The notes under the pieces: generated by a model | What the model saw: the letters and a program-made list of their open reading frames with translations, nothing else | Told to the model about the DNA's origin: nothing | The model's database searches: none | NCBI GenBank assembly: GCA_010093995.1 | Contig: ML992502.1 | Span: forward strand, 199,868-263,867 | DNA: 64,000 bases | Source: Elsinoe ampelina | Taxonomy: Eukaryota | Reading direction: 5' to 3' | Position numbers and translations under genes: made by a program | Shown here: in pieces, positions 22,240 to 53,800 of the stretch | Layout of the letters: each line of letters opens with the position of its first letter | Position numbering within the stretch: the first letter of the stretch is position 1

Positions 22240-24039
<1,800 letters not shown>

Positions 24040-24460
24040 TCAGTAATATTGTACTGTGGCGCTCTGCTATGTCTACAGTCGTATTATGAGGATGTTCCCT
24101 ACAACTCCAGATGTGGTCGCTGAGTTTTGTCCACAAAGACACGGGATTTGCAGGATTAGCACGACGCGTATATAGCTACGAAATCCGTCTTGAGAATCGA
24201 GATAATGAGATTGATTGGAAGTTGAAGACCGCCGATAGTAATGCTGTTCGTGATGGCGTGATACAACATGGTGCATTATTGGCGGGGTGTGGGGCGAGTG
24301 TCGGCATCGCGGCCCGGGTAAAAAAAAAAAGGGGTTGAGGGGGTCCCCCATCACATTTGCTCACTTGCATTTTCGGTCATATCTCCACCAAAACTAATTC
24401 AATCGGCTCCAAACTTCGAGAGCCGATAGATCTCATCGTTTTGCACCGACGGATATGCTC

Positions 24461-24473
24461 AAAAACGCAAAAA
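24461..24473 (-). terminator. Pol III oligo-T terminator of tRNA-Thr(AGT)
   Basis: TTTTT-GCG-TTTTT on the minus strand, starting 2 nt after the discriminator base. Confidence 0.75.
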
Positions 24474-24474
24474 T

Positions 24475-24635
24475 TGCTTCTCACAGGAATCGAACCTGTG
24501 ACCTCGTCATTTCGACCGAGAGCAACCCGAAGAACGAGTGCCAAGACTACTAGTGACGCGCTCTACCCTTCAAGGTGTTAGCTTTATTCCTGTGTTGTTC
24601 AGGAAGTGTGGAAACTCACACTGAGCTAGAGAAGC
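24475..24635 (-). tRNA. tRNA-Thr(AGT) with two introns: spliceosomal-type insert in the D-loop (24568-24619) and a canonical 37/38 intron (24511-24547)
   Basis: Exons 24635-24620, 24567-24548 and 24510-24475 join to 72 nt: GCTTCTC TA GCTC AGT/GGTA GAGC G CGTCA CT AGT A/A TGACG AGGTC ACAGG TTCGATT CCTGT GAGAAGC A. All four stems pair perfectly; B box present; two T5 runs downstream. Confidence 0.92.
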
Positions 24636-24994
24636 ACGTTTTTGATGGGAGACCGCAAGGTAGCAAATTATATGTAGTTTTGTGTGGCTCGGCCGCTTAC
24701 GGCGCACGGACCGTCCCCTCCCGAATCCACGGAACATCTGAACATGTACTTTGCGTGTGAGATCACCACATCTACCCTGACATAATTCGATCAGTACCTG
24801 CCTCAATTACACTGTAGGGCGCCAGAACATGGAATACCTCGTGAGAGATAATATGTAATTGGCGGGCAACTATATCAAGATTTGAGGTCGTCAATCGCAC
24901 CTCAGCCACGCAAGCAATTGTCGAATTGCTTCAATAAGACCCGGCTCTGGTGAGAATTGCAGGGCGAATAGTACAATATATTGATCACCCGGTC

Positions 24995-26440
24995 ATGGCA
25001 AATTCCAACAACGACCATGCAATCATCGACGATACAAAAGATGCAGCACGCCACCTACGAGAACAATTCATCATACCGTCAAGGTCCCAGCTGAAACGCA
25101 CAACCTTAAAGGCGGTGGGAGAGCCTCTCCAAGATGCAGATATCAGACCTTGCACCTATCTATGTGGCAATTCTCTCGGGCTTCAACCAAAATTGGTCTC
25201 ACAATACACTGCAGCATATCATCAAACGTGGGCGTCGAAAGGAGTTTATGGCCACTTCAAAGAGATTGAAGATTCGCCACTACAGCCATGGCTGAACGTG
25301 GACGACGCTGTCGCAGAAGACATGGGCATCATTGTTGGTGCAGGTAAAGACGAAGTAGCTGTCATGCAGACTCTGACAGCAAACCTCCACTTCGCCATGT
25401 TGTCCTTCTATCGCCCGTCCAAGAACCGCTACAAAATAATCATTGAGGGTAAAGCCTTTCCCAGCGATCACTATGCCATTGAATCTCAACTGCAACACCA
25501 TGGCTATGAACCCTCAAAAGCAATGATCACCATCGAGCCCCCATCTCCAAGCGTTCCAACTCTTACAACAGACCACATCCTCTCCGTCATTGACGCCCAC
25601 GCCTCTACCACGGCCGTTCTTCTCCTCCCAGCCATTCAATTCTATACCGGTCAATTCTTCGACATCGCCACCATCACCGCCCACGCACAGTCCCGCGGCA
25701 TCACAGTGGGCTGGGATCTCGCGCACGCAGTCGGCAATGTACCCCTGCAGCTGCACGACTGGAACGTAGACTTCGCAGTCTGGTGCAACTACAAGTACAT
25801 GAACTGCGGTCCCGGCGCAATCGGAGGACTTTTCATCCACTCGCGTCACTCATCTGCCTCCGCGTCTCCCTTACCACGACTAGCAGGATGGTGGGGATCC
25901 TCGAAGTCTTCACGGTTCGCCATGACAAACACCTTCGACCCTATCCCCGGTGCAGCTGGGTGGCAACTGTCTAATCCATCGGTTGCAGATCTCACGGCGG
26001 TCAGGGCGAGCCTTGATGTCTTCAAGATGACCTCCATGGCGGAATTACGAAAGAAATCGCTCGTCCTGACGCAGTACCTACAAGATCTCCTGCAGTCGCT
26101 TGCAGAGAGCGAGGGTAGCAGCAGGGAAAAGAGCTTTGAGATCATCACCCCTCTTGATCCGGAGCAGAGAGGCGCTCAGCTGAGTATCAGACTATCACCG
26201 GGATTACTGGATGGTGTCATGCATGTTTTGGAGGAGGAAGGGGTTGTAGTAGATGAGCGCAGACCGGATGTCATCAGGGTAGCGCCGGCACCCCTGTATA
26301 ATACCGCTGAAGACTGCTCACGATTCGTGGAAGTATTTGGGGTAGCGCTGAAGAGGGTGAAGGGAGGCAAGACAGGGACGAACGGAGCTACGATGGTGGA
26401 AGCAGGGAAGGAGGCCAAGGGATGGAGTGAGGTGAAATGA
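24995..26440 (+). CDS. BNA5: Kynureninase
   Basis: YLCGNSLGLQPK, IEGKAFPSDHYA, GWDLAHAVGN, PLP lysine in WCNYKYMNCGPG, QRGAQLS, RVAPAPLYN. Confidence 0.95.
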   Translation: MANSNNDHAIIDDTKDAARHLREQFIIPSRSQLKRTTLKAVGEPLQDADIRPCTYLCGNSLGLQPKLVSQYTAAYHQTWASKGVYGHFKEIEDSPLQPWLNVDDAVAEDMGIIVGAGKDEVAVMQTLTANLHFAMLSFYRPSKNRYKIIIEGKAFPSDHYAIESQLQHHGYEPSKAMITIEPPSPSVPTLTTDHILSVIDAHASTTAVLLLPAIQFYTGQFFDIATITAHAQSRGITVGWDLAHAVGNVPLQLHDWNVDFAVWCNYKYMNCGPGAIGGLFIHSRHSSASASPLPRLAGWWGSSKSSRFAMTNTFDPIPGAAGWQLSNPSVADLTAVRASLDVFKMTSMAELRKKSLVLTQYLQDLLQSLAESEGSSREKSFEIITPLDPEQRGAQLSIRLSPGLLDGVMHVLEEEGVVVDERRPDVIRVAPAPLYNTAEDCSRFVEVFGVALKRVKGGKTGTNGATMVEAGKEAKGWSEVK

Positions 26441-52354: not shown

Positions 52355-52477
52355 GCCGGGTTGGCGCAGTGGGTCAGTAGACACCCTCGGAGATCACACT
52401 CCTCAGTCTGACGGGATAACTAGTAACGCGTCGCACTTGTAATGCGAAGATCCCAGGTTCAATTCCTGGACTCGGCA
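52355..52477 (+). tRNA. tRNA-Thr(TGT) with a spliceosomal-type insert in the D-loop (52373-52423)
   Basis: Exons 52355-52372 and 52424-52477 join to 72 nt: GCCGGGT TG GCGC AGTGG/TA ACGC G TCGCA CT TGT AA TGCGA AGATC CCAGG TTCAATT CCTGG ACTCGGC A. Acceptor (one G-U), anticodon and T stems pair; T6 follows. Confidence 0.92.
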
Positions 52478-52483
52478 TTTTTT
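52478..52483 (+). terminator. Pol III oligo-T terminator of tRNA-Thr(TGT)
   Basis: TTTTTT immediately after the discriminator A. Confidence 0.8.
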
Positions 52484-53800
52484 GATCTTTTTGAGCTCTC
52501 TAGGGTGCTCTTTATGATCCTTGGAAGCTTATACATCGAATGGAGTAAATCAGATAATCAAAAATTTTGCTCTACCTTTCGCTACGTGTTGATGAAACTC
52601 TGCTTGGAACGGACTGCCCCGAATTTGCCAAGATTTCACATGCGCAGAGCCGCAACGCCTGAACGTTGATATTGTTCTTGCAAGGAATGTCAATTTTTGG
52701 TCATGTCGGCGAAAATATCATTCACAAGTTCTCAATGTTGCACTAACCTCTGGGATGAGCTTCTGCTGCATACTGGTACCAAAAACTGCACACAGATCAT
52801 CGAGGTCATCCGATCACCCGTCCACAACCATCATGCACGTGCTGCACCGGGTAACGAGGATGCAGACGACCGTGTACTACGGTGTCCACCAGTCAATTGT
52901 CAGATCACATTTCTGATGATATGTTTGTGTTCATTATGTGAGCAATAGCCGCTGGCATGGAATACTGCATCTAATGGATGAGGACATGTCAGGAAACCAT
53001 GACGTGGAGCTGCCCACGATCTGTCCAACCTATCTGTCCAAATCTGTCTCAGGGGCTCTCTCAGCTCCCAAGCTGGACAAAGCCGCGTCCTGAACCAAAA
53101 AAAGAGTCGACGAACTACTCCTGACGTGCAAGTCTCAGATGGAACGCGATATTATAACGTGTCGCGTCTCAACAGAAGCCCTTCATAGCTGTAGAGCTGT
53201 AGAGTCATCATACCATGAGATGACTGATCTCCTGCTCACAAAAGATACGTGTGAAATCACATCTCGGCTGCACAGAGTCATGTCCTTGTGGCTTGGCCGC
53301 TCCTTGCCCTGTCCGAATGGAGGAAAATGAAGTAAAGTGACATCGATCTCCGCCTAAATTACCCTTCGACAAATTCTTCCATAATCTTTCGAATCTCCAT
53401 CAAACCACCTCCACCCAAAAGGCGATATCCATTTCGTCTTTTCCTTGCGTGTCTGTCTCTTCTGTAGATAGACGATCGCTTTGTTCTTGCATCGTGCTTG
53501 TCCAGCACCAACCGCTAGGACAAAGAACCGTTGGGTTCATCCTCCTTGGACCTCACGCGCTCGGACGGCATCCCATTGCCATCCCCGTCCGCCCTTTTCT
53601 TCGGTCTCTGCACTTAAGAGCACCTCACACGCCTGGTATCGTCGACTCGAGACGTGCCCCTTCCATCTCCGCTCATCGCAACCTGTATTTCATCGGTCGC
53701 GTCGCGGATTTGACATCTGACTTCGCCCGGAAGCAGCAAAAAAAGTAACACCTGAAAATTTCCGCACAGCCGCTTTTCGCATCAAACCGACAACAATCTC

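Follow-up and report, generated by a model that had tools for sequence, protein, structure and literature searches.

Candidate spliceosomal introns in the D-loops of tRNA-Thr genes from the fungus Elsinoe ampelina

Two threonine tRNA genes in a 64,000-nt stretch of Elsinoe ampelina DNA (GCA_010093995.1, contig ML992502.1, positions 199,868 to 263,867 of the forward strand) are interrupted in the D-loop by inserts that carry the donor, branch and acceptor signals of mRNA introns. We refer to the whole stretch as the window and number it from its first letter. One of the two genes, a tRNA-Thr(AGT) gene on the minus strand, also contains an ordinary tRNA intron in its anticodon loop and thus combines two types of insert within 161 nt. 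The other is a tRNA-Thr(TGT) gene on the plus strand, and a third case, again a tRNA-Thr(AGT) gene, was found on a metagenome contig. On balance, and with moderate confidence, we favor the reading that the D-loop inserts are real spliceosomal introns of the U2 type (GT-AG) that are spliced out in nuclear tRNA-Thr genes. Here, we describe the three genes, the RNA-derived contig that covers one of them, and the explanations that compete with this reading.

A tRNA-Thr(AGT) gene with two inserts

The Thr(AGT) gene occupies 24635-24475 of the window on the minus strand and consists of exons of 16 + 20 + 36 nt and inserts of 52 + 37 nt. From its 5' end to its 3' end, it is laid out as follows:

24620..24635, minus strand: exon 1, 16 nt; acceptor 5' strand, positions 8-9, D-stem 5' strand and the D-loop letters AGT
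24568..24619, minus strand: D-loop insert, 52 nt, of spliceosomal type; D-loop site 16/17
24548..24567, minus strand: exon 2, 20 nt; D-loop letters GGTA, D-stem 3' strand, anticodon stem 5' strand and the anticodon-loop letters CT-AGT-A
24511..24547, minus strand: 37-nt intron of the canonical tRNA kind, separating positions 37 and 38; the third base from its end, a G, faces C32
24475..24510, minus strand: exon 3, 36 nt; position 38 to the discriminator A, including the T arm (GGTTCGATTCC)

The observation of a Thr(AGT) gene with two inserts at these coordinates is confirmed. A first-pass annotation, made from the letters of the window, had described the exons, both inserts and the motifs GTGAGT, GCTAAC (24582-24577) and AAG, and all of its coordinates and letters for this gene proved exact. 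The tRNA-finding program ARAGORN returned a clean Thr(agt) cloverleaf only when both inserts were removed; with one or both left in, it made wrong calls (Pro, Ser, Phe) with forced introns. Applied to the 64-kb window in its default mode, the program reported 0 tRNA genes, and with introns allowed it placed a false tRNA-Pro at the Thr(AGT) locus. The Rfam tRNA model had no match at this locus, either at the gathering score or at E values up to 10, and a scan of 24380-24760 with Rfam at E values up to 10 yielded chance-level matches only (Plastid-ycf2, the IS1222 frameshift element and snoU105B).

The two inserts are of different kinds. The 37-nt insert (24547-24511) has the marks of a canonical intron of the endonuclease type, namely a location between positions 37 and 38 and a possible pair between C32 and the G at intron position -3. 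It had been annotated as starting one base 3' of the anticodon, with its third-last G facing C32, and position and letters bear this out. The 52-nt D-loop insert begins with the donor GTGAGT (24619-24614), contains the branch sequence GCTAAC and ends in the acceptor AAG (24570-24568). Its branch A lies 10 nt from the insert end, and the terminal AG is the first AG after the branch. The boundary register is ambiguous by 1 nt, with GT..AG and TG..GG giving identical mature RNA.

For comparison with introns of local mRNAs, we used two introns in the neighboring arylsulfatase gene on the minus strand. Five runs of two studies, none of them listed as RNA, contained part of 24040-24940. Contigs of four public runs (X1-X4) were placed on 23000-26000, and the kind of run was judged from intron skipping. 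The contigs of all four runs skip both arylsulfatase introns; the contigs are therefore transcripts and the introns are real:

23499/23500-23548/23549, minus strand: arylsulfatase intron A, 50 nt; GTCAGT, TTGAC, TAG; branch A 10 nt from the end
23768-23816, minus strand: arylsulfatase intron B, 49 nt; GTAAGT, CTGAT, CAG; branch A 9 nt from the end

The Thr(AGT) D-loop insert shares the build of these two RNA-verified introns in its donor, its branch, its terminal AG and its length (52 nt versus 50 and 49 nt). Both arylsulfatase introns bypass an AG just 4 nt after the branch A. A chance test was performed on random 51/52-nt segments from both strands of the window, in which a GTNAGT start, a CTRAY motif that places the branch A 5-30 nt before the end, and a terminal AG were scored jointly. 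This set of splice signals was present in 5 of 255,897 segments.

Two further genes with D-loop inserts

A structural scan of the window for a T arm with a matching acceptor within 400 nt identified two tRNA-like genes, 24475-24635 and 52355-52477, both of which (2/2) carry a D-loop insert. The second is a Thr(TGT) gene with the following parts:

52355..52372, plus strand: exon 1, 18 nt, ending in the D-loop letters AGTGG
52373..52423, plus strand: D-loop insert, 51 nt; GTCAGT, CTGAC (52408-52412), TAG
52424..52477, plus strand: exon 2, without an anticodon-loop intron; followed by T6 (52478-52483) and T5 (52488-52492)

In this insert the branch A lies 12 nt from the end, and TAG holds the first AG after the branch. 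The insertion site falls between positions 19/20, or 18/19 in the other register, and differs from the site in Thr(AGT). ARAGORN recovered a Thr(tgt) cloverleaf after removal of the insert, with the cut 1 nt off the GT..AG register. The gene sits in a stretch without a convincing coding frame. The sole match of the Rfam tRNA model in the window, 52410-52477 on the plus strand (31.3 bits versus a gathering score of 29), falls on this gene and is mis-registered: the alignment runs the model's 5' half into the 51-nt insert, while the true 5' exon lies at 52355-52372. Threonine is the amino acid of both interrupted genes in the window (isoacceptors AGT and TGT); the two differ in acceptor stem, insert position and insert sequence.

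The third case came from a metagenome scan whose pattern joined the Thr(AGT) letters of D arm and anticodon loop across a gap of 38-68 free bases; GT, AG and a branch were not required. Four loci were recovered, one true (L004) and three false (L001-L003). The true locus, on a contig of 35,954 bp, is a Thr(AGT) gene whose D-loop is interrupted after G15 (site 15/16) by an insert of 57 nt. The insert has a GTTGGT donor, a CTAAT branch and a CAG acceptor, its branch A lies 12 nt from the end, and ARAGORN returned a perfect Thr(agt) only after insert removal. At 400-470 of this contig, an 8-nt direct repeat (CAG then TTGGT) is present at both insert junctions, with one extra G at the 5' junction; the repeat makes the start of the intron mimic the displaced D-loop letters. 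L001-L003 were dropped as interrupted tRNA genes, being tandem tRNA-like arrays in which the search pattern had spanned two units. L001 as a whole, and L002 and L003 around 300-600, consist of tRNA-like units of ~80 nt with a D arm and an anticodon-arm-like part with CTAGCAA or CTAGTAA loops; L002 and L003 have identical sequence on opposite strands. The same Thr(AGT) pattern gave 0 matches in a prokaryote genome collection and 0 in viral contigs.

Across the three inserts, the first AG after the branch coincides with the boundary that restores the tRNA (3/3). Beyond the signals, the inserts are dissimilar in sequence; it is signals, not ancestry, that they have in common. A search of the 64-kb window for a second copy of any D-loop insert, as expected of a repeat or introner-like family, found none. 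With two further genes and three different D-loop positions, the case for D-loop introns of the mRNA type appears better supported than the first-pass annotation could know. The three positions (15/16, 16/17 and 19/20) and the lack of sequence kinship suggest that the exposed D-loop gained its introns independently, in no fewer than two or three insertions. By analogy with the origin proposed for introns in U6, these could have arisen by reverse splicing into an abundant RNA. Alternatively, the 8-nt junction repeat of L004 suggests an insertion that duplicated its target.

Transcription, processing and rival explanations

A single RNA-derived contig covers the Thr(AGT) locus. This contig, from run X1 (1/4 runs), measures 301 nt at a depth of 12.8, covers 24346-24637 on the minus strand with 0 differences from the window, and retains both inserts. 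Downstream of the tRNA it continues for another 129 nt, crossing two T5 tracts without reaching a T11 tract. At its other end it terminates at 24637, 2 nt upstream of the tRNA +1, in the loose letters AGATCGGAA, which we take to be the start of an Illumina adapter and which would mark a fragment end. The contig shows transcription of the Thr(AGT) locus from a point 2 nt upstream of +1 and the existence of a 3'-extended precursor with neither insert spliced out. Three features frame this transcript:

24667..24674, minus strand: TATA-like CATATAAT, ~30-37 nt upstream of the contig end at 24637; a putative promoter element
24473-24469 and 24465-24461, minus strand: two T5 tracts directly 3' of the tRNA, which look like weak terminators of RNA polymerase III (Pol III)
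24320..24330, minus strand: T11 tract, likely the final stop of the read-through precursor

The contig end at 24637 together with the upstream TATA-like CATATAAT fits initiation at the G just upstream of the tRNA. The trailer (24346-24474, minus strand) contains an 8-bp hairpin at 24427-24402 and, in the stretch scanned (24380-24760), resembles no known RNA of Rfam at E values up to 10. We rejected the possibility that the locus is part of the arylsulfatase 5' untranslated region or of another flanking mRNA, as the neighboring contigs stop short of it in 4/4 runs: those of the arylsulfatase gene reach only 24202-24228, and those of the kynureninase gene start at 24781-24821. Run X1 has no cover at 24229-24345 and 24638-24780, and X2-X4 have none over the tRNA; such blanks are not evidence. 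In the kynureninase gene, runs X2 and X3 have T for C at 25874, probably a strain difference. A protein atlas assigned 2 of the top 3 clusters for the kynureninase to Eukaryota, with Ascomycota the commonest group, which is a weak taxonomic hint.

Gene-internal promoter elements were assessed by eye against the box consensus. In Thr(TGT) an A-box-like stretch lies wholly in exon 1. In Thr(AGT) the first intron bases restore such a stretch to one mismatch, and in L004 they nearly restore it, GTTGGT repeating the displaced D-loop letters. A T arm resembling a B box is present in each of the three genes, and T tracts follow (T5/T5 in Thr(AGT), T6/T5 in Thr(TGT) and T5 in L004). Since the features of a Pol III gene have been kept, we read these genes as working genes from which the D-loop intron would be removed by the spliceosome. 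Transcription would start just upstream of +1, where the internal A/B-box-like sequences and downstream T tracts fit Pol III. Guided by the donor (GUGAGU or GUCAGU), the CURAC branch and the first AG, 10-12 nt beyond it, the spliceosome would release the D-loop intron as a lariat. In Thr(AGT), tRNA splicing endonuclease and ligase would separately take out the 37-nt intron at 37/38, and RNase P and RNase Z would trim the ends. Removal by the spliceosome, the polymerase that makes the spliced precursor, the order of splicing and the use of the mature tRNA are all points that we infer.

Two conclusions of the first-pass annotation bear on this scheme. It had held that maturation needs two machineries, spliceosome and tRNA endonuclease. 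The underlying distinction between two classes of insert stands at the sequence level; removal by either machinery was not seen, the sole contig keeping both inserts. It had further proposed that the D-loop intron probably has to be removed first, which folding of the precursor does not support. With the cloverleaf enforced, the full 161-nt precursor reaches a predicted -50.0 kcal/mol, within 3.5 kcal/mol of the unconstrained minimum of -53.5 kcal/mol, and the D-loop intron forms two hairpins on the D-loop. The tRNA-like body may therefore form before the D-loop intron is removed.

Several points weigh against removal by the spliceosome. AAG is a less favored acceptor, and the L004 donor GTTGGT is off-consensus and a weak signal. 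Predicted folds place the Thr(AGT) donor in a hairpin, where it is possibly sequestered. The substrate would be an odd one, with a 5' exon of 16-18 nt plus a 2-nt leader, highly structured exons and, if made by Pol III, no cap. No contig of the four runs joins across either Thr(AGT) insert, a result to be read with the limits that contigs cannot show absence and that RNAs of 72-124 nt are not expected among them. Finally, all three cases are tRNA-Thr, the third having been found through a Thr(AGT)-specific pattern, which makes for a narrow sample.

The strongest competing explanation, which we regard as unlikely but serious, is that these genes no longer work or are on the way to being lost. 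In this view, the D-loop was hit by an intron-like piece, either the DNA copy of a reverse-spliced intron or an insertion with target duplication, and the tRNA was lost; the internal promoter would still drive transcription, but the RNA would never be matured, and intron-free paralogues would do the work. The only RNA contig seen over Thr(AGT) is unspliced, as this would predict, and the 8-nt direct repeat at both junctions of L004 is what an insertion event would leave. As a further point against splicing, a 2014 review of tRNA introns states that a eukaryotic tRNA gene with an insertion in its D or T arm is usually regarded as a pseudogene (PMC4090602). However, cloverleaf, T arm, anticodon loop and terminator tracts are flawless in each of the three genes, and the A-box-like stretch is kept nearly intact by the first intron bases. 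Interruption of both tRNA genes in a 64-kb window (2/2) would be many for pseudogenes. Moreover, all three inserts (3/3) have full splice signals with the first AG on the tRNA boundary, and nothing in a dead gene would preserve that arrangement.

We consider it improbable that the inserts are removed without the spliceosome, by the endonuclease acting at a non-canonical site or by another nuclease-ligase route, with the GT-AG appearance being secondary. There is precedent, in that D-arm introns of Cyanidioschyzon merolae and nucleomorphs are described as being cut by endonuclease-type splicing in the account cited here (PMC4090602). The endonuclease would be present anyway, a canonical intron occurring in the same Thr(AGT) gene. 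On the other hand, the D-loop inserts neither lie at 37/38 nor offer the pair with position 32. A bulge-helix-bulge motif was ruled out for all three: neither it nor a relaxed form occurs at any register, the central helix reaching 1-2 of 4 pairs and the outer helices 0-3. The signals and their spacing match the verified local mRNA introns far beyond chance, and at 51-57 nt the inserts agree in length with the local spliceosomal introns (49-50 nt). Self-splicing introns were also set aside, the inserts being far too short.

Somewhat more remote is the idea that the insert stays, either as part of an expanded tRNA-shaped RNA, working or inert, or with its splice signals serving a longer Pol II transcript that crosses the gene. 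The enforced cloverleaf, with an energy within 3.5 kcal/mol of the minimum and the insert accommodated as two D-loop hairpins, would suit an expanded tRNA-shaped RNA, and both the TATA-like element upstream of the contig end and the 129-nt extension beyond the tRNA end also fit retention. Against it, the arylsulfatase and kynureninase contigs stop short of the tRNA in all four runs, the Thr(TGT) gene lies where no coding frame is plausible, and three unrelated inserts with only splice signals in common speak for removal and against a structural role. Chance resemblance or an assembly artifact, for which nothing speaks beyond the 1-nt register ambiguity at each boundary, is hardly credible, given that an independent RNA-derived contig reproduces the Thr(AGT) locus exactly, that a signal set as rare as 5 in 255,897 per segment is yet found twice in the window, and that a third case exists on a metagenome contig.

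Significance and comparison with known systems

What would be new, and is partly supported by the sequences, is that spliceosomal introns, already known in non-mRNA genes, also occur in tRNA, and there beside an intron of the endonuclease type. A spliceosome-type and an endonuclease-type intron in one tRNA gene would cross the textbook boundary between intron classes, and tRNA would join U6, U1, U2, U5, U3 and rRNA as a non-mRNA host of spliceosomal introns. If spliceosomal removal is true, one 161-nt gene would need two unrelated splicing machineries and would provide a natural system in which to study how the spliceosome engages a Pol III transcript and how two splicing steps are ordered. 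For intron gain, tRNAs are abundant and their loops exposed, and a D-loop struck at three positions has the properties expected of a reverse-splicing target. More tentatively, and in our view doubtful at present, a substantial share of the nuclear tRNA genes in this fungal lineage might carry D-loop spliceosomal introns, which would make some of the tRNA supply dependent on the spliceosome.

The genes are also of practical relevance to annotation, being invisible to ARAGORN, the Rfam tRNA model and the eukaryote mode of tRNAscan-SE, and fungal genomes may thus seem to lack tRNAs that they encode. According to the part of the tRNAscan-SE 2.0 description cited here, non-canonical introns are sought only in the archaeal mode, with bulge-helix-bulge models (PMC8450103).

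In a search of open-access full-text literature, we found no report of spliceosomal introns in tRNA genes. A 2025 paper, in the portion we cite, treats two classes as unrelated, the spliceosomal introns of Pol II transcripts and the introns that the tRNA endonuclease cuts from tRNAs (PMC12530127). The nearest relatives of the inserts described here may be the spliceosomal introns in the Pol III-transcribed U6 genes of S. pombe and other fungi (PMC5855946). In the passage cited from that U6 review, the non-mRNA hosts of spliceosomal introns are U6, U2, U5, U1 and rRNA, and tRNA is not on this list (PMC5855946). As portrayed in the same passage, fungal U6 introns resemble the D-loop inserts in several respects: they are of the short GT-AG type, with canonical signals at donor, branch and acceptor and no other sequence conservation, the host gene carries Pol III promoter elements and encodes a non-coding RNA that is small and highly structured, and several independent insertions have occurred at different sites (PMC5855946). 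The two differ in the kind of evidence at hand, with removal by the spliceosome reported there as established for the S. pombe U6 intron (PMC5855946), whereas the tRNA inserts are known from sequence and, in Thr(AGT), from unspliced RNA. Unlike U6, tRNA is not part of the spliceosome, so that the argument from proximity to the active site does not apply, and one of the tRNA genes also has an endonuclease-type intron.

Spliceosomal introns are also said to have been described in ascomycete rRNA genes by Bhattacharya and colleagues in 2000 (as cited in PMC5855946). Fungal U3 snoRNA genes contain spliceosome-type introns as well, according to the section cited (PMC5832005). The rRNA and U3 introns, as far as these accounts extend, are likewise spliceosome-type introns in fungal non-mRNA genes and are known by their signals and positions; the polymerase and the host RNA differ.

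With regard to location, the closest parallels are the non-canonical tRNA introns of archaea, Cyanidioschyzon merolae and nucleomorphs, which, in the sections cited, occur in the D arm or D-loop, sometimes beside a 37/38 intron (PMC4090602). Common to those introns and the D-loop inserts is that standard tRNA finders miss the genes, as reported there for the former (PMC4090602). The non-canonical introns are described in the same source as having bulge-helix-bulge or relaxed motifs, as being cut by the endonuclease and, in nucleomorphs, as often measuring 3-24 nt (PMC4090602). In contrast, the D-loop inserts of the tRNA-Thr genes have donor, branch and acceptor signals in place of a bulge-helix-bulge.

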